Assembly (NCBI GenBank): GCA_016186955.1 | Contig: JACPKP010000009.1 | Location: 161,595-225,594, forward strand | Reading direction: 5' to 3' | From: Candidatus Daviesbacteria bacterium | GTDB lineage: Bacteria; Patescibacteriota; Microgenomatia; Daviesbacterales; UBA10151 | Length of the DNA: 64,000 nt | In this document: positions 23,802 to 63,768 of the stretch, piece after piece | Layout: the number at the start of each line of letters is the position of its first letter | How positions within the stretch are numbered: the stretch's first letter is position 1 | Position numbers and translations under genes: made by a program | Notes under the pieces: model-generated | Seen by the model: only the letters and a program-made list of their open reading frames with translations | The model's database searches: none | What the model was told of the DNA's origin: nothing

Positions 23802-23837
23802 TAATTATGTTTTTTTGATATTGTTGATACAGCTTTT

Positions 23838-25319: not shown

Positions 25320-25367
25320 CTTGTATGGTACGCCTTCCGAGTGATTTAGGTTGATACTTGGCTTATC

Positions 25368-26443: not shown

Positions 26444-26477
26444 AGAAAGATAACCTGGGAGTTGATATAATGGGTGG

Positions 26478-29509: not shown

Positions 29510-29510
29510 C

Positions 29511-48398: not shown

Positions 48399-49551
48399 TC
48401 TGCTAAAAAAACCATACATAATTTTTCTTTCTATATTTTCTGTTTACATTCTGTTTTTAGCTCTTGTCACCAGAGTTATTTTTATCTATCATTTGAGCGC
48501 TCAGAACTTATTGCTCTTAGGGCTTTTAGGTATAGATTTTTCTTTACCCTTTTGGGGGATATACCTTTTTGCAATAGGAAGTTTTTTAGTATTCAGCCTA
48601 ATCTCTTTTAAACTTTTTCCCCGCCCATACAGTTACTATCCGTTGCTAATTTATGCAATTACACCTTGGTTTCATTACCTGACTGTCGCCAGATCCGTTT
48701 ACATATATTTACTTTTTTTAACATTGATCTCTTTTTTCGGATTGATACTTATAAAACAAAAAAAGGAAAAGTTAGGTTTGGCCTTATTTTTAGCAGGAAG
48801 TTCACTTTCAATTTACAGCTTTATAACGCCCCTTTTTATGTACGCAATACTGCTTTGTATCTTGAAGATAACAAAGCTACTTAGGCCGCAAATTACCAAG
48901 GTAATGGTAATAACTTTTATTGTAACTATTATTCCTTTAGGAGCTTTAATTAGGTTCCGCCCGCAAGCTTTTGAAAATATGTATCAAAATGAAGTAACAA
49001 TTTTCTCAAACCCCGGGTTACTTTCCGACAGTAACCGCCTCCAGGGGGACTCTAAAGCCATGGGTTTTTCATATTTAGCTAAGTTATCCGAGAATAAGTA
49101 TTTTTATGTTGGGAAATATTCATTAATGAAGCTTTTATATCAATTTACACCATCAACTTATTTTACACCTGAGGAAAAATTATTAAACTTTTCGTTTACT
49201 CCTCCGCTTTTTTTGGGTTTTTTAATCCCGTTTATTTATGGATTTTATAAAATCATTTATGAAAAAAATTTGAGAAAGTACCTCTTAATTTTGCCGGTTC
49301 TTGTTCTGCCATCGTTTTTATCGCAAAAAATTGTTAATTTAAACCATCTTGTAATAATCGGACCGGCAATAATTTTATTTTCAGGTTATGGATTAACACT
49401 TCTTTCAAAAAGAAAGATACTACTTTTAATGACAATAGTAATAGTTTTAACCCAAATTTTATTTACAACTCTGGATATAGTCCAAAGAGAGGATATCCGT
49501 TACCATAAAAATTTTGGAGTAAATATTTTAAATGATTTGGGAAGACAATGA
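48391..49551 (+). CDS. polytopic membrane protein (386 aa), unknown function
   Basis: ~9 TM helices; coupled by overlaps to flanking GT genes. Confidence 0.45.
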   Translation: MFNLLKKPYIIFLSIFSVYILFLALVTRVIFIYHLSAQNLLLLGLLGIDFSLPFWGIYLFAIGSFLVFSLISFKLFPRPYSYYPLLIYAITPWFHYLTVARSVYIYLLFLTLISFFGLILIKQKKEKLGLALFLAGSSLSIYSFITPLFMYAILLCILKITKLLRPQITKVMVITFIVTIIPLGALIRFRPQAFENMYQNEVTIFSNPGLLSDSNRLQGDSKAMGFSYLAKLSENKYFYVGKYSLMKLLYQFTPSTYFTPEEKLLNFSFTPPLFLGFLIPFIYGFYKIIYEKNLRKYLLILPVLVLPSFLSQKIVNLNHLVIIGPAIILFSGYGLTLLSKRKILLLMTIVIVLTQILFTTLDIVQREDIRYHKNFGVNILNDLGRQ

Positions 49552-51233
49552 ACAGTAAAAAATCAACCCTGATTATCTTATTCTTGTTGACCTTATTGGG
49601 TGGCTTACTAAGGTTTTATAAATTAACAGAAAATCCGGTAAGTTTAAACCCTGATGAAGTTTCCTTTGCGTATAGCGCTTACTCGGTACTGAAAACCGGA
49701 AAGGATGAGTATGGAAAATTTTTACCTATAACTTTTAAGTCAGTGGGAGATTATAAAAATCCCGTACCGGTTTATTCACTAGTTTTATCTGAAGCGGTGT
49801 TTGGACTGAATGATTTTGGTGAAAGGTTTCCGTTTGCTTTTTTTGGTACATTGGCTATACCGGTTTTGTTTTTTCTGGCTTTTCAGTTGACAAAAAATAA
49901 AAATATTGCATTTTTGGCAGCAGGAATGCTGGTTATTTCACCATGGCATGTTTTTTACAGCCGTTATGGTAATGACCCGCCAATGGGGATGGTTGTAGCC
50001 AGTTTAGGGTTGCTGTTTTTTTTGAAGATGATTGAGAAACGGGGTATCTACACTATCCTTGCAGCCTTCTTTCTGGTTTTATCGATGTATTCATACTATT
50101 CTGAGAGGGTTTTTATTCCCCTACTTTTCCTGCTGCTTATTACTCTTTTCTTTGGTAATTTGAAGAAACACTTGAAAAGCACGATTGTTTTTCTTACTGC
50201 ATCTGCAATTTTTGTCAGCCTGTTGGTGTTGAGAAGCTTTTTTGGGCCGGATTTGGCAAGAGGGAATATGGTTTTTATAGCTAAGGATGTTGATTACCTG
50301 AGGTATATTGCACTGGATCATGTCAGTCCGGGCTTAAATTTAGGCGGTATCCACATTGAAGAAACCTTCGCCCTGCTGACACTTGTGGTAGGACGTTATT
50401 TAAATTACCTTCAGCCTGATTTTTTATTTTTTACAGGGCTTAATATGACACATGAAGGAAGTTTGGGGCTTGGAGTATTATACTTATTTGACCTTCCGCT
50501 GTTGATTTTGGGTATATTGGAACTTATAAAAGGTAAATTTCCAAATAGGGGGTTAAATACGAAGTACCAAGTCCCGCTTATTTTCGGTTGGATAGCGCTT
50601 TCCTTTATACCCGCAGCCTTGACTAATAACGAACACAATGCCGGAAGGACAATTCAGGCTTTGCCGATGGTACTGTTAATAAGCGCCATAGGGTTTACTA
50701 AATTTATAGAATTTATCAGAAAAATGAAGCAGGTTTATATTAAAACAGCTGCCGTTTTATTTTGCGGATTGTTTGTCCTGATCAGTTTAATACACGCATT
50801 GATTACATATTCGGTACATTTTCCTGTAGATAGAAGTGAGTTTTCCATGAAAGGAAACAAGGAAGCGGTGGAATATATTCTGGCCAACAAAGAAAAATAC
50901 CAGGAAGTAGTCTTTGACCCTTTCAGGGGAGTTGATGCACCGGCTATATACAGTCTGCCGGGGTATTATATTTTGTTTTATGCAAAGTATGATCCGGCGC
51001 TGTACCAGAAGGAATTGATAGAGAATGAGAAAAAAGGGATTTCAGGTTTTGGCCAGTACAGGATAAGAAAAATTTACTGGCCCAATGACAGGTATGCTAA
51101 AGATACACTTTTTGTGGGCAGCCCCTGGAGCCTGCCGCTAAAAGACATAAAAGAGGAAGAAATTTTAAAAAGAATATATTTAAGCAACGGCCAACTGGCA
51201 CTGCTGGTTGTTAACCCCAAGCCTCCAAAATGA
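49548..51233 (+). CDS. GT-C membrane glycosyltransferase, PMT/ArnT-like
   Basis: LRFYKLTENPVSLNPDEVSFAYSAYSVLKTGKDEYGK motif. Confidence 0.75.
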   Translation: MNSKKSTLIILFLLTLLGGLLRFYKLTENPVSLNPDEVSFAYSAYSVLKTGKDEYGKFLPITFKSVGDYKNPVPVYSLVLSEAVFGLNDFGERFPFAFFGTLAIPVLFFLAFQLTKNKNIAFLAAGMLVISPWHVFYSRYGNDPPMGMVVASLGLLFFLKMIEKRGIYTILAAFFLVLSMYSYYSERVFIPLLFLLLITLFFGNLKKHLKSTIVFLTASAIFVSLLVLRSFFGPDLARGNMVFIAKDVDYLRYIALDHVSPGLNLGGIHIEETFALLTLVVGRYLNYLQPDFLFFTGLNMTHEGSLGLGVLYLFDLPLLILGILELIKGKFPNRGLNTKYQVPLIFGWIALSFIPAALTNNEHNAGRTIQALPMVLLISAIGFTKFIEFIRKMKQVYIKTAAVLFCGLFVLISLIHALITYSVHFPVDRSEFSMKGNKEAVEYILANKEKYQEVVFDPFRGVDAPAIYSLPGYYILFYAKYDPALYQKELIENEKKGISGFGQYRIRKIYWPNDRYAKDTLFVGSPWSLPLKDIKEEEILKRIYLSNGQLALLVVNPKPPK

Positions 51234-51258
51234 TCAGTGTTGGCAATAGTTAGAAATA

Positions 51259-52602
51259 TTGCATATAATATTGTATTCTGCCCCACAAAATATGATAAAT
51301 AGGGAATATTTAATTCAAAAACTTCTGCAGGTTAAAACAGCGGAAGAAAGAATACGGGATATTAGACCAATGCCTAAAAGTGCAATTATTTTAGGCGGAG
51401 GTGGAATTACCGCCAAAACTTATGGTCCAAAATTTGCAAAAGCAGACCTTCCAATTGTTGCGTTGCTGGATACAAAAACAAAAGATCAGGCAGTATCACT
51501 TGAGGTGTTGGATCAGGTGGATTATTATCAAATTCCCCAAAATTATAATATTTGTGATATTGAAAAAATTATCCATAATTATTCTGATTCAGCTTTGATT
51601 GTAATGACTCCTCAACAGACTCATACTAGCATACTGGAAAAACTGGCTCCCTTACTTGATAAAAGGCAAATACCTGTTTGGATTGATAAACCATTAGCAA
51701 TGTCAGTAGATGAAGTTGTTAGAATTAGTAAACTAATCGATAGATTTCCCAATTTAGCGCACCTTTTAGTTTCAGGAGGGTTTACTTTGGACAAAGCCAC
51801 TCCCGAACTTACATTACTTGAAGGAAGTCAAAAAGATTTTTTGGGGAAATTAAAAAATGTCCAGTTTCTTTTTATGGAAGGAAGCAGGCAATTTAGAGAG
51901 GTGATAGGGAGTTATGGGAGGCCTCATCTGGCTTTTTATCCCGGGGGAGGAATGTTGGGGGATTTATTGGAACATCTAACAGATAAATTAATCAGAATGA
52001 ATATTATTGATTTAAAGTCTGAATTTTTATCAGTTTATCTTGGATATACTCCCATGGGAGAAGCAAATACTTCGATTCCATGGCAAGTACCAGAAAAGAA
52101 AGGATTAGCTGAAACAGAAGCAGAGCTGGTGATTTATGGAAAAGATAAATTACCAATATTTTTAAATTTTGGCAAAAGGGGAGCACAGTTTCTGGGTGAT
52201 ATCAGAAGGTCAAAATTAGTTTTTGAGAATGCGGTTTTGGAAACTGATTATTCTGATTCTGGTAATGATTACACCTCATTTTTTTCAGTTACTACAAAAG
52301 ATTTCAAGACTACAACCGAGCTTAGTAAAGATCCTTACATATTAATGTTGGAGCGTTATAAAAAGCTTTGGTCTGGAGGAATCAATGGTCAGGGTGGAAT
52401 TTATGCACAACTTGTTAATGCAGTGATGATAGATGATATTTATAAAATCTGGAAAGGGGAAAAACCGTTGATTTTTCAACAATCTCCAAAATCAAAAGCA
52501 TTTCGGGATATATCAAATTACAAAAATTCAGATGAGTATTTTTTTAGACAACAAAGAGATTGGGAAGCGTTTCTAAGACTCCACCAGAGTATTATTTTAT
52601 GA
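51259..52602 (+). CDS. divergent Gfo/Idh/MocA-like NAD(P)-dependent oxidoreductase (IDKP in place of EKP motif)
   Basis: SAIILGGGGITAKTYGPKF Rossmann-like; LIVMTPQQTHTSIL...PVWIDKPLAMSVDEV matches MocA-family topology; paralog of 55312-56739. Confidence 0.5.
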   Translation: MHIILYSAPQNMINREYLIQKLLQVKTAEERIRDIRPMPKSAIILGGGGITAKTYGPKFAKADLPIVALLDTKTKDQAVSLEVLDQVDYYQIPQNYNICDIEKIIHNYSDSALIVMTPQQTHTSILEKLAPLLDKRQIPVWIDKPLAMSVDEVVRISKLIDRFPNLAHLLVSGGFTLDKATPELTLLEGSQKDFLGKLKNVQFLFMEGSRQFREVIGSYGRPHLAFYPGGGMLGDLLEHLTDKLIRMNIIDLKSEFLSVYLGYTPMGEANTSIPWQVPEKKGLAETEAELVIYGKDKLPIFLNFGKRGAQFLGDIRRSKLVFENAVLETDYSDSGNDYTSFFSVTTKDFKTTTELSKDPYILMLERYKKLWSGGINGQGGIYAQLVNAVMIDDIYKIWKGEKPLIFQQSPKSKAFRDISNYKNSDEYFFRQQRDWEAFLRLHQSIIL

Positions 52603-53294
52603 GAGAAGTTCATCGGTATGGGGTGGTTATTCCTTACAGCCTCAATATCAGGACAGATTCACTGCATTTGGGAGAAGAAAGACTAACTTTTTACTCCGCT
52701 TTTGTATTAAATGCTGTTATAGAATCTTTAAAGCATGGATTGATCAATCAGTGTATTTTTTTTGATGACCCTTCATTTGGGAGTTTTAAAAAATCAACCG
52801 GAGAATTAATGCTCGAAAGTTTATTAAGGACAAAAATTGCCAGCAATAAGGCAATTTTGATGTCCGGTAATTCAAATAATACTGTATCTCAAATAAAGGT
52901 TTTAGGAAAATTTCAAGAGGACTTTAATTTACAATCAGAAAAGTTTTTAATAATTGCCTGGGGATTCCATATAAAAAGGATTAAAAACTACATTAACAGT
53001 TTTAAGGTTAATGCAGATATAGTTAGTGCAGAATCCTTGCACAAGATTTATAGATGTAATTTTAATGAAGCGTATCTACAGAAAATATTGCCAGTTAAAA
53101 TTAGCCAACGAGAAAAAATCTCCGAACTCATATCAAGAATTGACAAACAAGGTCAATTCTTGCTTTTTCTGAAATTATTTACAGGACCAATGGTTACTGA
53201 TATCTACAAAGATGATTCTGGAAAACTACAAGACTTAATTACCCCAGGTAATAAAAGATTAAAGCAAGTTCAGGGTATACAAAAAAGATTTTAG
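52599..53294 (+). CDS. DUF218 (YdcF/ElyC/SanA-like) domain protein
   Basis: ATG 52599 overlaps upstream stop (ATGA); FLIIAWGFHIKRIKNY resembles DUF218 VTsxxHxxRA motif; weak. Confidence 0.35.
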   Translation: MREVHRYGVVIPYSLNIRTDSLHLGEERLTFYSAFVLNAVIESLKHGLINQCIFFDDPSFGSFKKSTGELMLESLLRTKIASNKAILMSGNSNNTVSQIKVLGKFQEDFNLQSEKFLIIAWGFHIKRIKNYINSFKVNADIVSAESLHKIYRCNFNEAYLQKILPVKISQREKISELISRIDKQGQFLLFLKLFTGPMVTDIYKDDSGKLQDLITPGNKRLKQVQGIQKRF

Positions 53295-53340
53295 TTAGTA
53301 GATTTTTTTATGGATATGTTATATTTGTATTGAATTTTAT

Positions 53341-54267
53341 ATGACAGAAGTTAAAGAATCTAAAAATTACCGTCCCAAAGTATCAGTGGTTGTTTTGGGT
53401 AGAGGTGTGGGTATACATGATAAAAAGTTGAGTTTAAGATATGGCGCTGGTAGTGAACAGGATAGACAATCGATATTGGAAGAAATCAAAAATAGTAAAG
53501 GAAGACAAATTAAGCCAACAAGGCTGATTGAAACTGCAGTTTTAAAAACACCGGAAAAGGGTATCTTTGGGCCAGAAGAACACCCAATATTTAATAAAGA
53601 GGCTGATCCTAATGCAATAGACTCCAGATATGCTGGGGCAAATGCCAATGTGATTGCTGCGGTTGATGTTGTGGGCGGGATTATCGATGAAAATAAAAAA
53701 GAATTAGTCGGGGTTTTATGGGCAGCCGGCCGGACACCGGATATGTTGTCATATGCTCCTGAAGGTTTAACACAGGGAGAAGTCCTGGCTAGAAAATTCA
53801 TCAATCATGTAGGAATAAAAGTCATGGGAAAAAATATTCAGATGGTTTTTGAGCCGGAAAATGTTAATACGTGGGATGACCTGATCTGTTCTTTAAAGTG
53901 GGCGGAAGCCCAAAATAGCGATGAAATAATAATAGTAACAGTAAAACCCCATATGAAACGCTCGAAAGATATGGCGGAAGAAGTACTAGGGGAGATGCGT
54001 GCAGAAGGTTTGAAGATTCCTAAAATGGATTATGTAATATCCGAAGAGAGGTTGATTCAACGCAACCCAAGGTATTTATCTTTAGTGGAAAAAGCCAGGG
54101 ATAGTTTGGCTTATCATGCTACCTCAGCCAGAGAACATTCAGGTATGGTGCAAAGAAAGATTGGGACTTATAGGTCACAATGGCAGGATGGCGGTAATAA
54201 AATCAGGGAATATTCAAAACTTGTATTAGTTATGACTCCTGAAGAAGTGCAGTTGAGGGCGATGTAA
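53341..54267 (+). CDS. DUF218 (YdcF/ElyC/SanA-like) domain protein
   Basis: EIIIVTVKPHMKRSKDMAEE matches DUF218 core motif; 308 aa. Confidence 0.35.
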   Translation: MTEVKESKNYRPKVSVVVLGRGVGIHDKKLSLRYGAGSEQDRQSILEEIKNSKGRQIKPTRLIETAVLKTPEKGIFGPEEHPIFNKEADPNAIDSRYAGANANVIAAVDVVGGIIDENKKELVGVLWAAGRTPDMLSYAPEGLTQGEVLARKFINHVGIKVMGKNIQMVFEPENVNTWDDLICSLKWAEAQNSDEIIIVTVKPHMKRSKDMAEEVLGEMRAEGLKIPKMDYVISEERLIQRNPRYLSLVEKARDSLAYHATSAREHSGMVQRKIGTYRSQWQDGGNKIREYSKLVLVMTPEEVQLRAM

Positions 54268-54280
54268 AATTTACATAAGA

Positions 54281-54309
54281 TTGACTTTTTGAGGGGTTTA
54301 ATTTAGTAT
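54281..54309 (+). promoter_or_regulatory. candidate sigma70-like promoter upstream of hddA-like kinase
   Basis: TTGACT (54281-54286), 17-nt spacer, TAGTAT (54304-54309), ~18 nt before ATG 54327. Confidence 0.3.
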
Positions 54310-54326
54310 CCAAAGCATCCAACCAG

Positions 54327-55304
54327 ATGATTATAACCCAGACCCCTTTAAGAATTAGTTTTGTGGGCGGAGGGACGGATCTGCCTGATTTTTATACAAA
54401 CTATGGCGGGGCTGTCATATCAACTGCAATCAATAAATATGTTTTTGTGATTGTTAAGGAAAGGTTTGATGATAAAATTTACTTAAACTGGATGAAAAAG
54501 GAAATTGTTGAAAGTGTTGACCAGATAGAGCATGAGCTAATCAGGGAAGCTATGAAAAAAACTCAAGTTTTAAAGGGGGTGGAGATCACAACCTTATCCG
54601 ATATACCTGCCGAGGGGTCAGGGTTGGGATCATCTTCCAGTATTACAGTGGGTTTGCTGCAGGCGATGTATTTGTATAAAGGGATGCCGGTTGATCCCGA
54701 GAGGTTGGCCAAAGAGGCATCGGAGATCGAAATTGATATTTTGGGAAAGCCGATCGGTAAACAGGACCAATATATAGCAAGCTACGGAGGTTTGAGACAT
54801 TTTACATTCCACCAGAATAATAATGTTTCCATTACCCAACCCAAGATTGAACAAGCGTTAATTGACAAACTTGGGGCAAATTTGTTACTTTTTTTTACAG
54901 GAAAGACCAGAAAATCTTCAGAGGTACTGACAGAACAAAAGCAGAAAATAGTTGATACGGCGGCAATTTTGAGGCAGATGAGGGATCAAAGCTATGAAGT
55001 GTTAAGCGCCTTAGAAAATGGTAATATTGATTTTCTAGGGGAAGCCTTAGACAGGGGTTGGGAATTGAAAAAACAGTTGGCAGGGAGGATTAGCAGTCCT
55101 GAGATAGACAATATGTACAAGTTAGCCAAAAAAGCAGGGGCGCTTGGCGGGAAGATTGCCGGCGCAGGAGGCGGGGGGTTTATGCTTTTATATGTGCCTT
55201 TAGAGGCACAAAATAATGTGCGCAAGGCGCTATCAGAATACAGGGAGATGCATTTTGGGTTTGAGAAAGACGGCAGCAAGTCAATTTTTAATATCAGAAG
55301 GTAA
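54327..55304 (+). CDS. hddA: GHMP-family sugar kinase, HddA-like (D-glycero-alpha-D-manno-heptose 7-phosphate kinase-like)
   Basis: PLRISFVGGGTDLPDFY N-terminus and PAEGSGLGSSSS GHMP motif II; 325 aa. Confidence 0.65.
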   Translation: MIITQTPLRISFVGGGTDLPDFYTNYGGAVISTAINKYVFVIVKERFDDKIYLNWMKKEIVESVDQIEHELIREAMKKTQVLKGVEITTLSDIPAEGSGLGSSSSITVGLLQAMYLYKGMPVDPERLAKEASEIEIDILGKPIGKQDQYIASYGGLRHFTFHQNNNVSITQPKIEQALIDKLGANLLLFFTGKTRKSSEVLTEQKQKIVDTAAILRQMRDQSYEVLSALENGNIDFLGEALDRGWELKKQLAGRISSPEIDNMYKLAKKAGALGGKIAGAGGGGFMLLYVPLEAQNNVRKALSEYREMHFGFEKDGSKSIFNIRR

Positions 55305-55311
55305 GAACTAT

Positions 55312-56739
55312 ATGAATACAGAAGCAGATACTAAAGGTTTTATCAGTCGAGCAAGTGTTGTCCAGAGTCTACAAACTCTTAAGCAACTAGAATTAAATCC
55401 CAGAGAAGTTACAAAAGCTCCCAAAAGTATTATTTTAATAGGAGGCGCTGGAGTTACAGCTCAAAGATATGCAGAGAGAATATCCAAAGCTGATTTAGTT
55501 GTAGAGGCAGTTGCAGATCTAAAACCTGCAGATCAAGTAGAGTTGCGTGGCCCGTTAGCTGGAGCTGAATACTTACAACTTACAGCTAACTACTCATCTA
55601 AGGATATCGAAAAACTGACAAAAAAGTATCCTGATGCTGCCTTGGTAGCAATGACTCCTCAGGATACACATACTGAAATTTTGCTGAAGCTAGCTGGTTT
55701 AATAGAAAGAGACAGTATACCAACTTGGATTGATAAACCACTAGCTATGAGCACAGCAGAATCAATAAAAGTTTTGAGGTTATTAATAACCCATCCTAGA
55801 CTGGCTCATTTAGTTGTTTCTGGCGGTTATACAATAGATAAAGCTACACCGGAGCTTATTTTTTATGGAGTCTTTGACCCTAATTACCCTTTTTCAGACC
55901 GGATAAAACCACTAGATTCTCAAACCCCTGATTTTCTAGAAGCTTACGGTAATACTGAAAGAAATAGACAAAAAATGGGCAGTCTCAAAAATGTCAAATT
56001 TTTGTTTGTTGAGGGACGACCAGCTACACGGGAAATAATTGGATGGGTTGGAAGGGCTCATCTGGCAGTTTTCCCCGGAGGCGGTATAACCGGAGACTTA
56101 CTTGAGCACCCTACAGATAAGTTATTTAAGATGGGTATATTAGATATTGATACAAAACTGCTTTCAGTTTACTTAGGTTATACTAGCCCTGGTACAGCTA
56201 ATACCTCAATACCCTGGGAAAAACCAGAAGGGAGAGGCCTAGCAGATATTGAAGGAGAAATTATAATGCAGAATAGAGATGGTGTACCCATTTTGCTCTC
56301 TTATGGTAAAAGAGGCCCTGAATTTTTAGGTGATATCCGTAGATCAAAGCTAACATTTGAACATGGAATTATTGAAACCCAATATAAAACCACCGATCAA
56401 GGTAGAGAGTTTAACCAATTTACTGTCTTTAATGCTGATGGGTCTCGTCATAACTACCTTCTTGACGGAGATTCATATGCAATGATGCTAGAAAGATACA
56501 AACTTTTGTGGAGCGGGCAGTTAACAGGCCAATCAACGTTATATAGTCAACTTTGTAATGCATTTTTTATTGAAGATATTTTCCGTTTATGGGATCAGCA
56601 AAATCCCTGCCTGTTTGAATGTTCGCCTAAAGCAGACAAATTTAGATCTAATAGAAATAAAGAGCTAACTCAGCATGATTTGGAAAAAACGGAACAAGAC
56701 TGGCAAGCTCTTCTAAATTTACATCCCGAATTGAAATAA
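55312..56739 (+). CDS. divergent Gfo/Idh/MocA-like oxidoreductase (paralog of 51259-52602)
   Basis: ATG 55312 after RBS-like agaagg; IILIGGAGVTAQRY...LVAMTPQDTHTEIL...PTWIDKPLAMSTAES...FPGGGITGDLLEHPTDKL shared with paralog. Confidence 0.5.
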   Translation: MNTEADTKGFISRASVVQSLQTLKQLELNPREVTKAPKSIILIGGAGVTAQRYAERISKADLVVEAVADLKPADQVELRGPLAGAEYLQLTANYSSKDIEKLTKKYPDAALVAMTPQDTHTEILLKLAGLIERDSIPTWIDKPLAMSTAESIKVLRLLITHPRLAHLVVSGGYTIDKATPELIFYGVFDPNYPFSDRIKPLDSQTPDFLEAYGNTERNRQKMGSLKNVKFLFVEGRPATREIIGWVGRAHLAVFPGGGITGDLLEHPTDKLFKMGILDIDTKLLSVYLGYTSPGTANTSIPWEKPEGRGLADIEGEIIMQNRDGVPILLSYGKRGPEFLGDIRRSKLTFEHGIIETQYKTTDQGREFNQFTVFNADGSRHNYLLDGDSYAMMLERYKLLWSGQLTGQSTLYSQLCNAFFIEDIFRLWDQQNPCLFECSPKADKFRSNRNKELTQHDLEKTEQDWQALLNLHPELK

Positions 56740-56762
56740 CTCAATATGATGAATAAGTTAAA

Positions 56763-57449
56763 ATGATTAATGTAAAAAATATTGCTCGAAACTATTTGAA
56801 TGATCTTAAAGATTCTTTAGGAAAAATTAAACTAGCAGATGTTCAAAAACTAGCAGATGTCTTATTAGAAGCTTACAAAAACGATAAAACCGTCTATATT
56901 TTAGGAAATGGCGGTGCAGCTTCAACCGCTTCTCATATGGCTTGTGATTTAGGGAAAGGGACTTTAAAAAATGTTTATAACCCCAGGGAGAAACGATTGA
57001 GGGTAGTATCGTTATCAGATAATGTTGCAACAATGACCGCTTTTGCTAATGACCTGTCGTTTGATGATATGTTTTTGCAACAACTTCATAATTTAGTACA
57101 AGAAGGGGATGTGGTGATAGGCATATCAGGGTCGGGTAATACACCAAATATTATCAAAGCATTAATGTATGCCAAAAACGAAGGAGCCAAAACAATAGGT
57201 CTTTTAGGGTATCACACCGGAGGTAAGGCAAAAGAGTTTGTTGATTTTGGTATCACAGTCCAAAGCAGCAGCTATGGAATTATTGAAGATGTCCATCTGG
57301 CGCTCAACCACCTGCTTACAAGCTGTCTTGCTTATATGAAAGAGCATATAGATAATGGTACGGATCCGGAAAAAGCTGTGGGTAAAAAAATTAATAAATC
57401 CCCAAAAGGGCAGGTTGCAGAATGGACGGAAAGGTCTGCCAGAAGATAA
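56763..57449 (+). CDS. gmhA: SIS-domain phosphoheptose isomerase (GmhA-like) with C-terminal extension
   Basis: VYILGNGGAASTASHMACDLGKG and GISGSGNTPNI SIS motifs. Confidence 0.7.
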   Translation: MINVKNIARNYLNDLKDSLGKIKLADVQKLADVLLEAYKNDKTVYILGNGGAASTASHMACDLGKGTLKNVYNPREKRLRVVSLSDNVATMTAFANDLSFDDMFLQQLHNLVQEGDVVIGISGSGNTPNIIKALMYAKNEGAKTIGLLGYHTGGKAKEFVDFGITVQSSSYGIIEDVHLALNHLLTSCLAYMKEHIDNGTDPEKAVGKKINKSPKGQVAEWTERSARR

Positions 57450-57458
57450 TATTAACCT

Positions 57459-58022
57459 TTAATACTCGGCTTCTATAAACTCAAAAACTATATGTATGAT
57501 TAAAGCATGCAGTTCCTGAATTCTGGCAGTTTTATCAGAATTAATAGATAAAGACTTATCCGCGATCTCCTTAGCCTTACTTTTTGTATTGCCGGTAAAA
57601 ATCCAGGTTTTTATTCCCAATGTTTTTGCAGTTTCCAAAGCCTTAATTACGTTGGGTGAATTTCCGGAGGTAGATATCCCGACTGCCAAATCCCTTCTGT
57701 AAGCGAATGCTTCAACTTCTCTTGAAAAAATCTCTTCGAACCCAAAGTCGTTGCTGATGCCCGTAATGTTTGAAAAGTTTGTACCAAGAGCAAGCGCCGG
57801 CAGCGGTTTTCTGCGTTTTACAAACCGGCCCACAAACTCTTCTGCCCAATGAGAGGCCTGCGTCGCAGAACCCCCGTTACCGAAAAACAGAATTTTTCCC
57901 CCCCTTTTTAACACCTGCAAAAAATCAGTTTTTAGTTCATCTATCTCTTGGAGATTTATATCCAGAACAACTTTGATATGCTCCAGAAGAATAGATTGGA
58001 TATAATTTTTATCTATCATCAA
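57459..58022 (-). CDS. gmhA: SIS-domain phosphoheptose isomerase (GmhA paralog); the only minus-strand gene in the 18.4-64 kb block
   Basis: ILFFGNGGSATQASHWAEEFVGRF and GISTSGNSPNVI. Confidence 0.7.
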   Translation of the reverse strand: MMIDKNYIQSILLEHIKVVLDINLQEIDELKTDFLQVLKRGGKILFFGNGGSATQASHWAEEFVGRFVKRRKPLPALALGTNFSNITGISNDFGFEEIFSREVEAFAYRRDLAVGISTSGNSPNVIKALETAKTLGIKTWIFTGNTKSKAKEIADKSLSINSDKTARIQELHALIIHIVFEFIEAEY

Positions 58023-58096
58023 TGGAGGTTCTTAGGTGATTATACACAAAACATATTGGTTTCCAAGATATTAAATTTTTGATAGAATAATCGACA

Positions 58097-58822
58097 ATGA
58101 AAGCATTAATTCTCGCAGCAGGACTTGGCGCCAGGTTGCGGCCTTTAACAGATAAAATTCCCAAGGTTATGGTGGATATTGGTGGTAAACCGCTACTTTG
58201 GTATCATGTCCAACTACTTAAAAAACATGGGATAAAAGACATCTGGATCAATCTGCATTGGCGTCCTGAAGTCATAAAAAGCTATTTTGGTAATGGTTCT
58301 AAGTTTGGTATAAAAATTAAATATTCTTTTGAAAAAAAACTTTTGGGTACATCCGGCGCTCTTAAAAACCCTGATAGCAATGTTGAAAAAGAATTAAGAA
58401 AGGCGCCTTTTTTGGTTTTTTATGGGGATAATTTAACAAATATTAATATTAGTAAAATGATAAGTTTTCACAAAATAAGAAAATCTTTCTTAACAGTAGC
58501 CCCTTATATTTATGAAAAGGCTTGGAAGAAAGGAGTTATTGAAATAGATACCAAACAACAGATCTTGCAATTTGTTGAAAAACCACTAAAAGGCGCTACT
58601 AAATCTAAACTGGTTAATTCAGGAGTATATATTTGTTCAAATAAAGTTTTTAATTTTGTCCCTGATGATTTTTCTGATTTTGGTTTTGATATCTTCCCGA
58701 AGCTTTTAGCAGCAAAAATGCCCCTTTACACCTTTAGTCCGGATTATTATTTTCAAGATATAGGAACTTTTGAGGGATTAAGGAAAGCAAAAAAGGATTT
58801 AAAAAAAATAGATTTATGGTAA
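58097..58822 (+). CDS. hddC: sugar-1-phosphate nucleotidyltransferase, HddC-like (D-glycero-D-manno-heptose 1-phosphate guanylyltransferase-like)
   Basis: MKALILAAGLGARLRPLTDKIPKVMV NTP-transferase start; 241 aa; adjacent to gmhB/gmhA/hddA. Confidence 0.6.
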   Translation: MKALILAAGLGARLRPLTDKIPKVMVDIGGKPLLWYHVQLLKKHGIKDIWINLHWRPEVIKSYFGNGSKFGIKIKYSFEKKLLGTSGALKNPDSNVEKELRKAPFLVFYGDNLTNINISKMISFHKIRKSFLTVAPYIYEKAWKKGVIEIDTKQQILQFVEKPLKGATKSKLVNSGVYICSNKVFNFVPDDFSDFGFDIFPKLLAAKMPLYTFSPDYYFQDIGTFEGLRKAKKDLKKIDLW

Positions 58823-59325
58823 AATCCCGTAAAGTGGAAAAAAAAGCCCTTTTTTTGGACAGGGATGGGGTGATTAATAAAAAACCTCCTGAACATGATT
58901 ATGTTAAATCCTGGGATGAATTTGAGTTGTTGCCGGATGTTATATCTGCAGTTTTACTGGCAAGAGACAAAGGATATTTTGTGATAGTAATTTCAAACCA
59001 GAGAGGAATTTCAAGAAAATTAATGAGAACAGAAGTTGTTGATGGTATACATAAAAACTTAAACGAAATACTAAAAAGAAATGGTACATATATTGATGCA
59101 TTTTACTTATGCCCTCATGACATTCCTGATAACTGCGAATGCAGAAAACCCAAACCTGGCTTGATTATGAAGGCTGCTTTAGATTTTGATATTGATCTTG
59201 GGAAGTCATTTTATATCGGAGACTCCCAAACTGATTATCAAGCAGGGGTTGCAGCTGGTGTTCGTACGGCGCTGATAGAAACAAACGGTTCTTTGCTGCA
59301 TGCCGTAAAAGGAATCTTAAATTAA
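58816..59325 (+). CDS. gmhB: D,D-heptose 1,7-bisphosphate phosphatase (HAD family, GmhB-like)
   Basis: ALFLDRDGVIN motif I; CPHDIPDNCECRKPKPG zinc-binding loop typical of GmhB; GDSQTD motif. Confidence 0.75.
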   Translation: MVKSRKVEKKALFLDRDGVINKKPPEHDYVKSWDEFELLPDVISAVLLARDKGYFVIVISNQRGISRKLMRTEVVDGIHKNLNEILKRNGTYIDAFYLCPHDIPDNCECRKPKPGLIMKAALDFDIDLGKSFYIGDSQTDYQAGVAAGVRTALIETNGSLLHAVKGILN

Positions 59326-60443
59326 TGAAAGGTAAAGTTTTGGTCATTGGAGGCGCTGGTTTTATCGGGTCGCATACTGCAGACGAACTTTTTAAAAGGG
59401 GATATAAAATCAGGATTTTGGATAATCTTTCTCCCAAAACCCACTTTGGCAGATGGCCCAAGTATTTAAGCCCTAAATTTGAAAAAATTAAAGGGAATGT
59501 GAAAGATAGGAAAATCCTGGAAAAATCCCTGGAAGGTGTAGATTTTGTAATCCATTTGGCAGCCATCATGGATTTAATGCCGGATTATTCAGTTTTCTTT
59601 GATACTAATGTTACTTCAACCGCTTTGCTTTATGAAATCATTGTTGCCAAAAAACTACCCATTAAAAAAATAGTTGTGGCATCATCTCAATTTGTTTATG
59701 GGGAGGGCAGATGGAGATGCAAAAAACACGGGGAAATCTTTCCAAAACAAAGAGTTAACGAGAGCTTAACTCAAAAAAGATGGGACCCTGTTTGCCCGTT
59801 GGGTGGAGAAAAAATCAAACCGTTGTTGTTGGAAGAAACCCATCAGGATCCGCCTAACCAGTATGCCATATCAAAATACACACAAGAGTTAATTGCCCTC
59901 AAATTGGGGCGTCTCAATAGTATTCCTTCAGTAGCTATGCGCTACTCAATTGTCCATGGCCCCAGGCAGTCTTTAAAAAATGCTTACTCCGGGGCTTTGA
60001 GGATTTTTACTCTTCAGCTTTTAAACAACAAGCCTTTATCAATCTATGAAGACGGGTTATCTCAACGGGATTATGTTTCGGTTTATGATGTGGCCCGGGC
60101 TAATGCAGATGTTTTAGAAAATCCCAGGGCGGACTTCGAAAATTTTAATGTAGGGTCCGGTAAAGCCTATACAGTTTTAGAACTTGCCCATATGGTGGCT
60201 CAAACTTTGGGGAAAGATTGGGGTTTTAAACCCACAGGGGAGTTTAGGGTGGGAGATATCAGGCATGCAGTTTCTTCTATTGCCAAACTTGAGAAGTTAG
60301 GGTGGAAAGTCAGAGATAAAGAAGAAGAGATTGTCAAAGAGTATGTAAATTGGGTCAAAGAACAAAAACTGGACCAAGATTATTTAAGTTTAGCTGAAGC
60401 GCAGATGAAAGCTTTGGGAGTGGTCAAAAAAGCTGCGCTGTAG
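59325..60443 (+). CDS. NAD-dependent nucleotide-sugar epimerase/dehydratase (extended SDR)
   Basis: MKGKVLVIGGAGFIGSHTADEL; YAISKYTQE catalytic YxxxK; 372 aa with an insertion (...CKKHGEIFPKQRV...). Confidence 0.7.
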   Translation: MKGKVLVIGGAGFIGSHTADELFKRGYKIRILDNLSPKTHFGRWPKYLSPKFEKIKGNVKDRKILEKSLEGVDFVIHLAAIMDLMPDYSVFFDTNVTSTALLYEIIVAKKLPIKKIVVASSQFVYGEGRWRCKKHGEIFPKQRVNESLTQKRWDPVCPLGGEKIKPLLLEETHQDPPNQYAISKYTQELIALKLGRLNSIPSVAMRYSIVHGPRQSLKNAYSGALRIFTLQLLNNKPLSIYEDGLSQRDYVSVYDVARANADVLENPRADFENFNVGSGKAYTVLELAHMVAQTLGKDWGFKPTGEFRVGDIRHAVSSIAKLEKLGWKVRDKEEEIVKEYVNWVKEQKLDQDYLSLAEAQMKALGVVKKAAL

Positions 60444-60478: not shown

Positions 60479-62158
60479 ATGGGGTATCCTTTATGGTTTA
60501 AAAAACATGCTACAATTCCACTTCTTTTGTTGCTTTTAATTTTACTCGTCCCGACTTTTTGGAGATTGATTCGGCCCGGGATTTTCTCCATGCATGATTT
60601 CCATGTCTTTAGGCTGTATGAATATGATAAATGTGTTGCAGATCTGCAGATCCCCTGCAGATGGGCGCCTGATAGCGCTTATGAATATGGTGAACCGATG
60701 TTTAATTTTTATGCGCAGTTACCCTATGCTTTTGGTGAGTTTTTTAGGTTCTTGGGATTTTCTGTATTGGATTCAATAAAAGCCCTTTTTATCTCATCCC
60801 TGGTTTTGTCTGCTACAGCGATGTTTTTACTTGCCAAACAATTTTGGGGGAATAACTTGTCAGCGCTTATCTCCGCCCTGATTTATGTGTATGCGCCATA
60901 TCGGGCAGTTGATGTATGGGTTAGGGGAGCCTTACCGGAAGCTCTGGCATTTATTTTTTTCCCGTTGATAACCTATTTTTTTAATGATTATGTTTTCAAC
61001 AAAAATACCAGATCGCTATTTTTATTTGGCGTATCTTTAGCAGGATTAATTTTGACGCATAACCTTTCTGTTTTGATGTTTCTTGTTTTCTTTTCTTTTT
61101 GGGCGATTTATTTTTTTACGAAATACAAGGCTTGGAATTTATTGCCAAAATTTATACTTTTGGGGATATTGGTTTTTGGGTTAACAGCATTTTATACACT
61201 GCCGGTGGCTTTTGAAAGTAAATTAATAACACTCACAGAAACCACAAAAGGATATTATGATTTTAATCTTCATTTTGTAACCTTGAAACAGCTTTTAATC
61301 TCCAGGTATTGGGGTTATGGGGCCTCACAATGGGGGGAAGATGACAGGTTGAGCTTGTCGGTTGGCCAAATTCAATGGATTTTACCGGTTATAATTGCTG
61401 TTCTGGTTCTTATCAAAAAAAGGCAAAGACAATATCTTAGTTTTTTCTTTCTTTTAGGGCTTGGCTGGTTTATGCTGCTACTTACCCACAACAAGTCGGT
61501 CTTAATTTGGGATCTGGTTAAACCATTAAGTTTTGTCCAATTCCCATGGAGGTTTTTAGGGTCTGCAGTTTTTCTTTTCGCTTTTGCATCAGGAGCAATG
61601 TTTACATTATTTAAAAAAAGCTACCTTAATAAACTCCTTTTTTTGGTTGTTACAACATTGCTTATCAGCTTGAATACATCTTTTTTCTTTGAGGATTTAT
61701 GGTTTAAATTCGACGATAGAGAATTTTTCAGCGGTAAAAATTATGAGCAACAGGTTACCTCGGCAATACATGATTTTTGGCCAAAAACCGGCAGTAAAAT
61801 CCCCGCAAATTTTGCCCCCAAGGCAGGATTTTTCCTTGAAGGCATGGGCAGTGCAAAATTAATTGAAAAAAGGAGTAATAAACAAATTTATACTGTTGAT
61901 TCAAACCAAAATAGTGTGGTTCAATTCCCCCTGGTATATTTTCCCGGATGGGAAGGATTTTCGGATAATAAAAAAATTAACCTTAGCCCAAGCGGGGAAT
62001 ACGGTTTAGTTACTGTAAATACCAAACCTGCCGACAAAATTATAAATTTAAAATTTGTAGATACCCCGATTAGGGTGATAGGGAATTTTGTTTCAGCAGT
62101 ATCAGTGGGGGCGCTTGTTATATTCCTAATCTTTTTTAAACGCAAAAAAATTATATGA
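60479..62158 (+). CDS. YfhO-like polytopic GT-C membrane glycosyltransferase (standalone homolog of the C-terminal domain of 45948-48398)
   Basis: IFSMHDFHVFRLYEYDKCVADLQIPCRWAPDSAYEYGEPMFNFYAQLPY aligns with the fusion protein; ~13 TM helices plus C-terminal beta-rich domain. Confidence 0.6.
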   Translation: MGYPLWFKKHATIPLLLLLLILLVPTFWRLIRPGIFSMHDFHVFRLYEYDKCVADLQIPCRWAPDSAYEYGEPMFNFYAQLPYAFGEFFRFLGFSVLDSIKALFISSLVLSATAMFLLAKQFWGNNLSALISALIYVYAPYRAVDVWVRGALPEALAFIFFPLITYFFNDYVFNKNTRSLFLFGVSLAGLILTHNLSVLMFLVFFSFWAIYFFTKYKAWNLLPKFILLGILVFGLTAFYTLPVAFESKLITLTETTKGYYDFNLHFVTLKQLLISRYWGYGASQWGEDDRLSLSVGQIQWILPVIIAVLVLIKKRQRQYLSFFFLLGLGWFMLLLTHNKSVLIWDLVKPLSFVQFPWRFLGSAVFLFAFASGAMFTLFKKSYLNKLLFLVVTTLLISLNTSFFFEDLWFKFDDREFFSGKNYEQQVTSAIHDFWPKTGSKIPANFAPKAGFFLEGMGSAKLIEKRSNKQIYTVDSNQNSVVQFPLVYFPGWEGFSDNKKINLSPSGEYGLVTVNTKPADKIINLKFVDTPIRVIGNFVSAVSVGALVIFLIFFKRKKII

Positions 62159-63768
62159 AAAAATTGATTATATTTTTTTTAATTCTTGTATTGGCAGCTT
62201 TCTTAAGGTTTTATAAACTTAATGAATATCCGCCAAGTTTGAATTGGGATGAAGTAAGCATTGGATATAATGCGTATTCTATTTTAAAAACAGGCCGGGA
62301 TGAATGGGGACAGATATTGCCGCTTTCCTTTAGGGCATATGGGGATTATAAACTTCCCGGGTATATTTATCTGGATACAGTTTTTATCAGAAGCTTTGGA
62401 TTAAATGCATGGGGTGTCAGATTACCTTCGGCGGTCTTGGGGCTGGGGATTGTTGTGTTTATCTTTTTAACCGTTAAAAAATTAATAAATACTAATCTGG
62501 CGCTTTGGGCAATGTTTACCGCTGCAGTAACCCCCTGGCTTATTATCCTGTCAAGGATTGCACTGGAAGCAAACCTGGCGCTTTTTTTTACAACAGGCTC
62601 AATTTATTTTTTAATTTTAGGATTCAAAAGAAAATATTTTCTTCTTGCCTCTTCCTTTTTTTTAGGTTTATCACTTTTTTCTTATAACTCTTCAAGAGTG
62701 GTTGTGATCCCATTGGTGATAACAGCAGCGGTATTGTTCTGGAAAAAAATTAACAACATAAAAGTTGCACTATTTGCTCTGGGTATATTGGCAATTTTTT
62801 TTATCACAGCTTTTCCGCTGGCTTTACTTCAGGATTCTTCTGCACGGTATAAGTGGACTACTATATTGGATCAAGGTGCAGTTTTGAGAATCAATGAGTT
62901 ACGGGGGTCCGCTGCCCTGCCGCCTGTTTTAGATAAACTGATTTACAACAAAATTACTTATTTTATACCCCAGTCCTTGGGGAACTATTTTTCACATTTT
63001 AATCCCAACTTCTTATTTTTTAACGGGGGATCCAATTACCAATATTCTGTTCCCGGTTCCGGTCTTTTCCACTTAAGTTTATTGCCCTTTTTAATATTAG
63101 GGATATATCAGATTTTCCGGAAAAAAGAAAATTGGCAATTTTTTATCTTAGGATGGTTAATTATTGCCTTGGTTCCTGCTGCAATTACCAGGGATGCCCC
63201 CCATGCCCTTCGTGCGCTGCTGATGATCCCGCCTTTTTTAATTATTTCTGTACTCGGGGTGGGTTTTGTTACGAGTCATTTTAAACCTACTTACGTAAAA
63301 GCGCTGCTTGCAATTTTTACCATTGCGTTAGTCTTTCAGTCTGTACAGTTCTGGAAAAATTATACAGGGGATTATGTAAAAAATTATTCCTGGTCATGGC
63401 AATATGGTTACAGAGAGGCTGTTGACTTCGTCAACAAAGAAGCTAATCAATATGATCGGATTTACTTCACAAAAAAGTATGGGGAACCGCATGAATTTGT
63501 ATTGTTCTACCTTAAAATTGACCCCCAATTTTTTAGAGGCAGCGCTGTGCCGGTAAGATATAAAAAATCAGATTGGTACTGGGTGGATAGTTTTGATAAA
63601 TTTGAATTTATTAACGATTGGGAGATTAAAGGAAACGTAAAGTGTGAAACGAAAAGCGAAAAATGTTTAATGGTGACAAGTCCTGGGAATTATCCGGAAG
63701 GGTGGAAGTTTATTAAAAAAATTGATTTCCTTGATGGGAAACCTGCATTTGATATAGTAGAAATATGA
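62155..63768 (+). CDS. GT-C membrane glycosyltransferase, PMT/ArnT-like
   Basis: LRFYKLNEYPPSLNWDEVSIGYNAYSILKTGRDEWGQ motif. Confidence 0.75.
   Translation: MKKLIIFFLILVLAAFLRFYKLNEYPPSLNWDEVSIGYNAYSILKTGRDEWGQILPLSFRAYGDYKLPGYIYLDTVFIRSFGLNAWGVRLPSAVLGLGIVVFIFLTVKKLINTNLALWAMFTAAVTPWLIILSRIALEANLALFFTTGSIYFLILGFKRKYFLLASSFFLGLSLFSYNSSRVVVIPLVITAAVLFWKKINNIKVALFALGILAIFFITAFPLALLQDSSARYKWTTILDQGAVLRINELRGSAALPPVLDKLIYNKITYFIPQSLGNYFSHFNPNFLFFNGGSNYQYSVPGSGLFHLSLLPFLILGIYQIFRKKENWQFFILGWLIIALVPAAITRDAPHALRALLMIPPFLIISVLGVGFVTSHFKPTYVKALLAIFTIALVFQSVQFWKNYTGDYVKNYSWSWQYGYREAVDFVNKEANQYDRIYFTKKYGEPHEFVLFYLKIDPQFFRGSAVPVRYKKSDWYWVDSFDKFEFINDWEIKGNVKCETKSEKCLMVTSPGNYPEGWKFIKKIDFLDGKPAFDIVEI

Follow-up and report, generated by a model that had tools for sequence, protein, structure and literature searches.

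Introduction

Heptoses are surface sugars as well as innate-immune signals, and the enzymes known to tailor them come from few protein families. The glycan of A. thermoaerophilus combines rhamnose with heptose, and the tailoring enzymes of C. jejuni are short-chain dehydrogenase/reductase (SDR) and cupin proteins, which belong to another superfamily than the Gfo/Idh/MocA-like (hereafter MocA-like) proteins considered here. We analyzed a stretch of 64,000 nucleotides (the window) from a Candidatus Daviesbacteria genome, in which a run of ten genes at positions 51259-60443 appears to activate a heptose and carries two members of a very rare MocA-like subfamily. In our judgment, the chances are about even that this run is a cassette for a nucleoside diphosphate (NDP)-D-glycero-manno-heptose, that the heptose is oxidized or epimerized by this new Gfo/Idh/MocA subfamily, and that the product is then passed to the flanking glycosyltransferases of the GT2 and GT-C types. 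The MocA-like family is very small, and the claims made below are computational throughout.

The steps of the GDP-heptose pathway have been described (PMC10680097). In C. jejuni, GDP-heptose is tailored by a C4-dehydrogenase (Cj1427), a C4,6-dehydratase, C3/C5-epimerases, C4-reductases, and mutases (PMC10680097); the same paper contains zero mentions of Gfo and leaves the C6 inversion of GDP-heptoses unexplained. Multi-component transmembrane glycosylation systems have been reviewed (PMC8035078).

A candidate heptose-activation cassette

The window belongs to a 291-kb contig of a metagenome-assembled genome from the Microgenomates group of Patescibacteria. All ten open reading frames (ORFs) were present at 51259-60443, and their proteins are identical to GenBank entries MBI2596217-MBI2596227 (locus tags HYW46_058xx). 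GenBank gives these only unspecific names ('hypothetical protein', 'SIS domain-containing protein', 'GHMP kinase', 'Gfo/Idh/MocA family oxidoreductase'), on which the pathway assignment given here improves. On the basis of public gene calls and sequence context, better starts were ATG at 51292 (MocA A), 52599 (DUF218-like a), 55312 (MocA B), and 58019 (canonical GmhA-like isomerase, SIS2). The genes are, in order:

51292-52602, plus strand: MocA-like protein A (MBI2596217.1), 436 amino acids, divergent NAD-type Gfo/Idh/MocA oxidoreductase
52599-53294, plus strand: DUF218-like small protein a, a soluble ORFan whose start overlaps the MocA A stop (ATGA)
53341-54267, plus strand: DUF218-like small protein b, 308 amino acids, soluble, of a small family
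54327-55304, plus strand: HddA/WcbL-type GHMP kinase, putative heptose-7-phosphate anomeric kinase
55312-56739, plus strand: MocA-like protein B, 475 amino acids, divergent NAD-type Gfo/Idh/MocA oxidoreductase, beginning 7 nucleotides past the kinase stop
56763-57449, plus strand: 'long' SIS isomerase (SIS1), 228 amino acids, GmhA variant
57459-58019, minus strand: canonical GmhA-like isomerase (SIS2), 186 amino acids, convergent with the long SIS
58097-58822, plus strand: sugar-1-phosphate nucleotidyltransferase with an NTP_transferase match
58816-59325, plus strand: GmhB-type HAD-IIIA phosphatase, candidate heptose-1,7-bisphosphate 7-phosphatase
59325-60443, plus strand: extended SDR of the epimerase type, with an insertion of ~40 residues

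Cut-offs quoted below are equivalog cut-offs for NCBIfam and gathering scores for Pfam. The kinase has the GHMP_kinases_N and GHMP_kinases_C domains of Pfam. Its best NCBIfam match was HddA (184.9 bits, E 2.7e-54, cut-off 600), followed by mevalonate kinase at 1e-29. The four best matches in the Protein Data Bank (PDB) were 3k85, 4usm/4usk (WcbL), and 4n3o (C. jejuni) at 1e-44 to 1e-49, all annotated as heptose or putative sugar kinases, and fucokinase came next at 1e-16. These matches place the kinase, at the family level, in the HddA family, which is of the GHMP type, whereas the ADP pathway has HldE/HldA of the PfkB type; a GHMP kinase points to the alpha-anomer route. The phosphatase scored 152.9 bits against PRK08942 (cut-off 178) and 111.9 bits against HAD-SF-IIIA (cut-off 44.6). 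Its best PDB matches were heptose bisphosphate phosphatases (4pnh at 7e-29, then 3l8h and 3l8e), and it carries a Cys/His zinc loop, CPHxxxxxxCECRKP. We assign it, again at the family level, to the GmhB type. An initial annotation of the window had named an HddA-like kinase, in line with the heptose kinases that head both of our searches, and a GmhB, which indeed is closest to heptose-1,7-bisphosphate phosphatases and has the zinc loop; the GHMP and HAD-IIIA profiles that it suggested checking were both matched.

The matches of the nucleotidyltransferase are less specific. It matched NTP_transferase of Pfam (149 bits), and its NCBIfam matches, all below cut-off, were mannose-1-phosphate guanylyltransferase (135 bits), archaeal GlmU (123 bits), MurU (115 bits), and HddC (112 bits, cut-off 300). 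The best PDB match was 8x7s at 1e-34, annotated as UDP-glucose pyrophosphorylase, an entry on which a literature search turned up nothing of use; the matches to GDP-mannose pyrophosphorylases and to HddC (6jq8) lay at about 1e-24 to 1e-25. The gene had been called HddC-like, of which the NTP_transferase family stands, but HddC ranks behind three other enzymes. Likewise, the initial annotation would have been refuted by a kinase and nucleotidyltransferase that group with non-heptose sugar enzymes: the kinase groups with heptose kinases, and the nucleotidyltransferase does not group specifically with HddC. GDP is a plausible activating nucleotide, judging from these matches.

Taken together, the presence of a heptose-activation cassette (isomerase, anomeric GHMP kinase, 7-phosphatase, and nucleotidyltransferase) is supported at the level of protein families, because enzymes of heptose pathways are by wide margins the closest characterized relatives of the kinase, the phosphatase, and either isomerase. 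Of the 'complete GDP-heptose pathway' initially described, the four core steps hold at the family level, whereas the words 'GDP' and 'complete' rest on family matches below cut-off.

Two members of a very rare Gfo/Idh/MocA subfamily

The Rossmann model GFO_IDH_MocA (PF01408) matched MocA A at 29.7 bits, above the cut-off of 24, and MocA B at 21.7 bits, just below it, so that this profile check bore out the initial assignment for A and fell slightly short for B. No Pfam model of a C-terminal domain matched either protein. NCBIfam models matched neither the MocA-like pair nor the DUF218-like pair, and they matched hardly anything among the nearest outgroup proteins of the MocA-like family. A and B are similar to each other (BLASTP 1e-145, 45% identity; 47% over aligned columns).

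Among 15 aligned family members, GxGxxA, TPQxTH, the Lys of (D/E)KP(L) (K142), and GGGxxxD262xxxH266 are invariant in all 15. An acidic residue at the end of beta-2 (D69) is near-invariant, which suggests NAD rather than NADP as the likely cofactor, and the substrate domain has five invariant basic residues (R240, R248, K333, R334, R343). The IDKP of the window proteins had been regarded as unusual; DKP occurs in 10 members and EKP in 5, making it an ordinary D/E variant. An AlphaFold2 (AF2) model of MocA B (predicted local distance difference test [pLDDT] 82, predicted template modeling score [pTM] 0.86) was compared with solved structures by Foldseek, and matched KijD10 (3rc1), DgpA, glucose-fructose oxidoreductase (GFOR), GnnA (7bvj), inositol dehydrogenases, and others with probability 1.0 over about 400 columns. 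Identity was ~13%, and the template modeling (TM) score was ~0.5 when normalized by the query and 0.65-0.7 when normalized by the target. Nucleotide-sugar enzymes did not rank above inositol, glucoside, or biliverdin reductases. In a sequence search of solved structures, the MocA-like profile matched only the Rossmann half of generic members (best E 0.003) and gave no functional lead. Nor did NCBIfam matches or a Foldseek preference group the family specifically with 3-dehydrogenases of the WlbA/GnnA/NtdC type. With the modeled fold, GxGxxA, (D/E)KP, and GGGxxxDxxxH, MocA A and B are in our assessment genuine Gfo/Idh/MocA enzymes, of predicted activity. A non-enzymatic, Gal80-like role was considered and rejected because the catalytic Lys, Asp, and His are invariant.

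The family is very small: 17 proteins were found among 5.8 billion clusters. A profile search of 1.84 billion representatives gave six clusters at E<1e-30, with the next match only at 2e-11. Among 185,579 species genomes a single short locus turned up, and metagenomes of the Joint Genome Institute (JGI) contributed five loci. The sole species-genome match (L005, 601-1952) is on a 2.5-kb contig labeled 'uncultured Gammaproteobacteria', where the MocA-like gene is split into two ORFs; this contig is probably mis-binned, carries a frameshift or an assembly error, and is too short to be of use.

In the phylogeny, MocA B groups with the family member P0002 (70% identity), and MocA A forms a long, separate branch that lacks an insertion of ~29 residues found in most members and keeps all the family-invariant residues. 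A has no higher identity to B (47%) than to other clades (up to 53%). A recent tandem duplication was ruled out by these identities and by the insertion missing in A, and the pair is best read from the alignment as an old paralogy or an acquisition. The initial view of the two as diverged paralogs with the fold and motifs of Gfo/Idh/MocA proteins was confirmed by their 47% identity, and the phylogeny it called for added the old branch of A and the grouping of B.

Two non-equivalent GmhA-type isomerases

The two convergent SIS genes end at 57449 and 57459. The canonical GmhA on the minus strand scored 174.5 bits against gmhA (TIGR00441; cut-off 209) and has the ligands H/E/Q/H. In GmhA, these residues are zinc ligands, the Glu being the catalytic base and the last His the acid (PMC5387315). 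The long SIS scored 71.8 bits against SIS_2 and 108 bits against gmhA (cut-off 209), and its best PDB relatives are GmhA structures at about 1e-22. In the alignment its ligand set is H58/D62/E175/H183, that is, E to D and Q to E relative to the canonical set. Five extra residues follow the Asp, SGSG stands in place of STSG, and the C terminus is extended by a tail. This signature is common to the SIS genes that adjoin MocA-like genes at three other loci (L001, L002, L003); at a fourth, L010, the SIS is canonical and the MocA-like gene is 6 kb off. The two isomerases are, on these residues, predicted to be non-equivalent, one being canonical and the other a variant subfamily that travels with the MocA-like gene. 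The initial annotation had counted them simply as two convergent GmhA genes; both do match GmhA best and are convergent, but one has altered ligands.

Genomic context of the MocA-like family

The locus L001 shows synteny with the window, running from GT-C genes through kinase, MocA, long SIS, nucleotidyltransferase, and GmhB to the insertion-bearing SDR (74% identity) and further GT-C genes. It is without MocA A, both small proteins, and the canonical GmhA, and has a NUDIX gene in that place; no canonical GmhA was found within 21 kb. In the window, three genes (those for MocA A and for the two small proteins, which are unrelated) are inserted before a conserved block of kinase, MocA, and SIS. 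This layout had been described as a duplicated MocA/DUF218 set in which each MocA has its own partners, a description that does not hold, as MocA A precedes both DUF218-like genes and these show no mutual similarity. L002 has a GmhB-like HAD, two SDRs, a nucleotidyltransferase, an IMPase-like gene (inositol monophosphatase), MocA, kinase, long SIS, and a weak DUF218-like gene. In L003, the genes for MocA, kinase, and long SIS precede one for a DUF218 protein that scores above the Pfam cut-off (28.3 bits), and glycosyltransferases come after it. The window and L001 share the order kinase-MocA-SIS, and L002 and L003 the order MocA-kinase-SIS, with gaps of 7-46 nucleotides.

Two Hainich groundwater contigs (L010, 2171-10790; L016, 3-8342) encode a SIS, a GHMP kinase, a 4,6-dehydratase, two thiamine pyrophosphate (TPP)-dependent E1 subunits, a DegT aminotransferase, two SDRs, and MocA in one operon-like cluster, with the kinase about 6 kb from the MocA-like gene. 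Such a gene set points to a branched-chain or amino deoxy-heptose. L002, like L010/L016, has an aminotransferase together with the MocA-like gene.

Overall, the link to heptose genes holds in 3 of the 6 MocA-like clades and is strong but not universal. The MocA-like gene stands alone in L004, adjoins a sugar transporter in L009, and lies beside PIN toxins, thymidylate kinase, or aspartokinase in L017-L019. The initial idea that the heptose is further modified before transfer by GT-C enzymes is reasonable in that MocA adjoins the HddA-like kinase and SIS in independent metagenomic contigs, but some members are in contexts without heptose genes.

Genes of the IMPase/FBPase (fructose bisphosphatase) family occur directly upstream of MocA in L002 (9154-9960) and one gene further upstream in L020 (1389-2174). 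They are 29% identical and could encode sugar bisphosphate phosphatases, for example for sedoheptulose-1,7-bisphosphate or heptose-1,7-bisphosphate.

In L014/L015, the ortholog of protein b has a small HAD on one side and on the other the ortholog of the SDR (67% identity), directly upstream of which it stands; a nucleotidyltransferase ortholog (50%) is close by, and in those 12 kb neither kinase nor SIS nor MocA was visible. Thus, the cassette is modular, with nucleotidyltransferase, SDR, and protein b on the one side and kinase, long SIS, and MocA on the other; nor need the nucleotidyltransferase and SDR be specific for heptose. In the window, the GmhB-type phosphatase goes with the nucleotidyltransferase and SDR, and the canonical GmhA and MocA A with the two small proteins come in addition.

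The SDR and the two DUF218-like proteins

The SDR has the motifs GGAGFIGS (GxxGxxG), ASSQFVYG (SSxxxYG), and YAISK (YxxxK) and no dehydratase TDE motif. It matched Epimerase of Pfam in two stretches (121.8 bits), and GalE (118 bits) and heptose 6-epimerase (95 bits) of NCBIfam, both below cut-off. The best PDB matches (6wjb, 6dnt, 4zrm) are annotated as 4-epimerase or epimerase/dehydratase family. These features place it among extended SDRs of the epimerase type, in agreement with the initial annotation. The insertion of ~40 residues (residues ~128-169) carries Cys/His/Cys in W-x-C-x2-H...W-x-P-V-C-P; it is kept in the orthologs of two other organisms (L001, L014) and was covered in one stretch by no solved relative among the best matches.

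The two small proteins had been called DUF218-like. DUF218 (PF02698) matched protein a at 18.1 bits (E 0.0027) and protein b at 26.4 bits, against a cut-off of 27.6, and in both cases the partial match covers about positions 38-104 of the 133 of the profile. BLASTP found no similarity between a and b and no convincing similarity of either to the DUF218-like neighbors in L002, L003, and L020, so they cannot be treated as one family. The sole homolog of protein a in 5.8 billion clusters was itself. The family of protein b has 8 proteins, 7 of which give weak, sub-threshold DUF218 matches. The structure predicted for b by AF2 (pLDDT 77, pTM 0.82) is built on an alpha/beta core with a parallel sheet, and with it Foldseek retrieved no PDB entry at E<=1e-3 and no YdcF among the top 50. 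By eye, neither translation has an obvious hydrophobic N-terminal segment. A literature search found no association of heptose with DUF218. With both scores below cut-off, no mutual similarity, and no solved DUF218 relative retrieved by b, the DUF218 assignment failed its profile check.

Proposed pathway and its alternatives

The SIS isomerases would convert sedoheptulose-7-phosphate to heptose-7-phosphate, the kinase would form heptose-1,7-bisphosphate, GmhB would release heptose-1-phosphate, and the nucleotidyltransferase would yield NDP-heptose, likely with GDP. These steps are assigned at the family level; we infer the MocA step, in which the MocA-like enzymes, using the Lys/Asp/His triad and NAD, would oxidize a secondary hydroxyl of the heptose to a keto-heptose. 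The keto-heptose could be re-reduced, with net epimerization, or in relatives with an aminotransferase be aminated. C3 oxidation is the precedent in the superfamily (WlbA, GnnA, NtdC, KijD10, DgpA), and by that precedent C3 would be the oxidized position, with C4 or C6 also possible. Finally, the genomic context suggests that the flanking polyprenyl-phosphate GT2 and GT-C place the product on a cell-surface polymer or protein. Action of MocA at the sugar-phosphate stage is slightly favored because the MocA gene is tied to the kinase and a dedicated isomerase variant, whereas the nucleotidyltransferase module is separable. A bolder form of the proposal is that the triad of kinase, long GmhA, and MocA is an undescribed Gfo/Idh/MocA route that alters the stereochemistry or oxidation of heptose (C3/C6 epimerization or a keto-heptose for amination), possibly at the sugar-phosphate stage and with polyprenyl-phosphate delivery to GT-C; this we put forward tentatively, leaning against it.

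Several observations weigh against an NDP-heptose cassette with a MocA step. None of the cassette genes reached an NCBIfam equivalog cut-off, and by NCBIfam and PDB matches the nucleotidyltransferase is no nearer to HddC than to hexose-1-phosphate enzymes; its ortholog and that of the SDR occur in L014 without visible heptose genes. In 3 of the 6 MocA-like clades (P0010/12/13, P0014, and the short contigs L007 and L009) no heptose genes are nearby, and in L020 an aldo-keto reductase and the IMPase-like gene stand ahead of the MocA-like gene instead of heptose genes. No aminotransferase or other obvious keto-sugar partner was found among the window ORFs scanned against Pfam, a scan that several smaller ORFs lay outside. 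In L010/L016, moreover, the MocA-like gene is at the far end of a nucleotide-sugar tailoring block, which favors action on an NDP-sugar. This last arrangement fits the initial version of the pathway, that is, a complete GDP-heptose pathway in which the MocA pair acts on the nucleotide sugar as a C3 dehydrogenase/ketoreductase in the manner of WlbA/WbpB, GnnA, and KijD10, and the SDR and the DUF218-like proteins finish the tailoring. The block closed by MocA there (4,6-dehydratase, E1, aminotransferase, two SDRs) is typical of NDP-sugar tailoring, KijD10 (3rc1) and GnnA (7bvj) are among the Foldseek neighbors, and aminotransferases occur in L002 and L010. We nevertheless consider that version rather doubtful. 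In four contexts MocA lies within the kinase-isomerase block and not beside the nucleotidyltransferase, Foldseek showed no preference over inositol, glucoside, and biliverdin reductases (target-normalized TM ~0.65-0.7, 13% identity), the DUF218 matches are below cut-off, and the nucleotidyltransferase is not specifically HddC.

It is also conceivable, though unlikely, that the MocA-like proteins are dehydrogenases of sugars, polyols, or cyclitols in general, without a tie to heptose and frequent as passengers of glycan and sugar clusters, and that the cassette makes unmodified NDP-heptose. The members beside PIN toxins, thymidylate kinase, and aspartokinase, the lone member in L004, the one at the sugar transporter in L009, and the one with the aldo-keto reductase and IMPase-like gene in L020 would then be natural, as would the recurrence of IMPase-like neighbors (L002, L020) and the inositol dehydrogenases among the Foldseek matches. 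A mere passenger is harder to reconcile with an HddA-like kinase that directly adjoins MocA in four contexts on three branches (window B/L001, window A, and L002/L003), the order shifting and the neighborhood being kept, with a kinase about 6 kb away in the same cluster in L010/L016, and with the dedicated SIS subfamily that co-occurs with the MocA-like gene. Very improbable in our view is that the kinase-long SIS-MocA triad handles another ketose phosphate and that the canonical GmhA is the only true heptose gene. The altered ligands of the long SIS (E to D, Q to E), its gmhA score of 108 bits against 209, the equivalog cut-offs all missed, and the triad of L001 without a canonical GmhA within 21 kb would agree with it; but among the characterized relatives of the kinase, heptose kinases lead by some 30 orders of magnitude, GmhA structures remain the best matches of the long SIS (1e-22), and the window, L001, and L002 each have an adjacent GmhB-type phosphatase. 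The reading that we prefer is the NDP-heptose cassette whose heptose is modified by the MocA-like enzymes.

The surrounding glycosylation island

The whole window is a glycosylation island. The flanks of the cassette and two promoter-like sites are:

43559-51233, plus strand: upstream flank, with an ArnC/DPM1-like small GT2, a GT-C (PMT_2), a GT2-GT-C fusion (816 amino acids), a membrane protein, and another GT-C
60479-63768, plus strand: downstream flank, with a membrane protein homologous to the C-terminal half of the 816-residue fusion, and a PMT_2 GT-C
51240-51269, plus strand: promoter-like site just 5' of MocA A (TTGGCA, spacer of 18 nucleotides, TATAAT; 11 of 12 consensus positions matched)
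58066-58039, minus strand: promoter-like site at the canonical GmhA

Promoters of candidate phyla are uncharacterized, and the consensus used for both sites may not be that of the host. Rfam and tRNA scans of the window were empty.

The 816-residue fusion (45948-48398), upstream of the cassette, and the downstream membrane protein share, by eye, a DLQIPCRW...FNFY motif. There are at least 10 GT-C genes of the PMT_2/PMT type in the 64 kb (17223-28010, 41902-51233, 60479-63768), and several GT2 genes of ~240 amino acids precede a GT-C (18458/19171, 20673/21419, 43559/44278). The best matches of these small GT2 proteins were polyprenyl-phosphate sugar synthases (ArnC, PgfS, dolichyl-phosphate hexose transferase, PpgS). 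An IspH/LytB gene (22804-23766) among the GT-C genes fits a demand for polyprenyl-phosphate carrier.

Elsewhere in the window is a complete dTDP-L-rhamnose operon (rmlA 7386-8102, rmlB-like 8190-9191, rmlC 9184-9720, rmlD 9717-10616), followed by a Gmd-like GDP-mannose 4,6-dehydratase (10629-11699; 311 bits, cut-off 415) 40 kb from the cassette. Gmd homologs (DmhA) also dehydrate GDP-heptose, and the Gmd-like gene could feed a 6-deoxy-heptose branch. A homolog of glutamine-dependent asparagine synthase (40021-41886) within the glycosyltransferase block could serve as an amidotransferase for a sugar acid or a glycan. Two long ORFs (13316-15871, 851 amino acids; 29463-32879, 1138 amino acids) have no Pfam match and are candidate surface or glycan-acceptor proteins. 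A MacB-type ATP-binding cassette (ABC) exporter, with an ATPase and an HlyD-like adaptor, and a CAP-domain protein (cysteine-rich secretory protein family) are encoded at 1386-4442 (minus strand) and 6199-7113.

Comparison with known systems

The heptose cassette itself is, by its protein families, of a known kind, and what appears to be new here is the association of a very rare Gfo/Idh/MocA subfamily with a matching GmhA variant. Like the GDP-heptose pathway, the cassette clusters the same four families (SIS isomerase, GHMP anomeric kinase, HAD-IIIA 7-phosphatase, and small nucleotidyltransferase), and a dTDP-rhamnose operon is in the same window. It differs in its sub-equivalog scores, in two non-equivalent isomerases, one with altered ligands, and in its activating nucleotide, which is putatively GDP; the host is of a candidate phylum, and the flanks are GT-C genes rather than genes for the export of capsule or S-layer glycans. 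The window resembles multi-component transmembrane glycosylation systems (polyprenyl-phosphate GT2, flippase, and GT-C; ArnC/ArnT, GtrABC, CsbB/YfhO), with its pairs of GT2 and PMT_2 GT-C and the GT2-GT-C fusion beside the cassette. A GT-C that takes lipid-phosphate-linked heptose as its donor would, to our knowledge, be without precedent.

The small proteins may also be compared with the DUF218/YdcF-SanA-ElyC family. A weak, partial profile match is found in a, b, and the neighbors of the L002/L003 triads, of which that in L003 passes (28.3 bits), and there is a thematic connection of this family to envelope glycan and polyprenyl-phosphate metabolism. On the other hand, a and b are below the cut-off, without an evident hydrophobic N-terminus, and mutually unrelated, and b has no solved relative.

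The MocA-like proteins share with the Gfo/Idh/MocA sugar oxidoreductases (the UDP-sugar 3-dehydrogenases WlbA/WbpB and GnnA, the dTDP-sugar 3-ketoreductase KijD10, and the glucose-6-phosphate 3-dehydrogenase NtdC) the two-domain fold, the dinucleotide motif, the Lys of (D/E)KP, and the D-x3-H pair. Genes of both kinds are found in sugar-modification clusters, sometimes with a DegT-type aminotransferase. Unlike those enzymes, the MocA-like proteins are ~100 residues longer (N-terminal helix, internal insertion, and C-terminal helical extension), with ~13% identity, and in the profile search a gap of more than 20 orders of magnitude separates them from ordinary members. We know of no characterized Gfo/Idh/MocA member that acts on heptose, and literature searches for heptose with MocA and for heptose with the Candidate Phyla Radiation found no association. 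If the proposal is true, a heptose-linked Gfo/Idh/MocA subfamily and an altered-ligand GmhA variant would be a new enzyme type in heptose tailoring and a first concrete handle on the surface glycans of uncultured Microgenomates.

A parallel in chemistry is the tailoring of GDP-heptose in C. jejuni. The logic would be the same, namely to oxidize a ring hydroxyl of an activated heptose and then to epimerize or reduce it to other stereoisomers (PMC10680097). The region 51259-60443 has no cupin epimerase and no 4,6-dehydratase. If true, a Gfo/Idh/MocA route of this kind could also bear on the C6 inversion of the GDP-heptoses of C. jejuni (PMC10680097).

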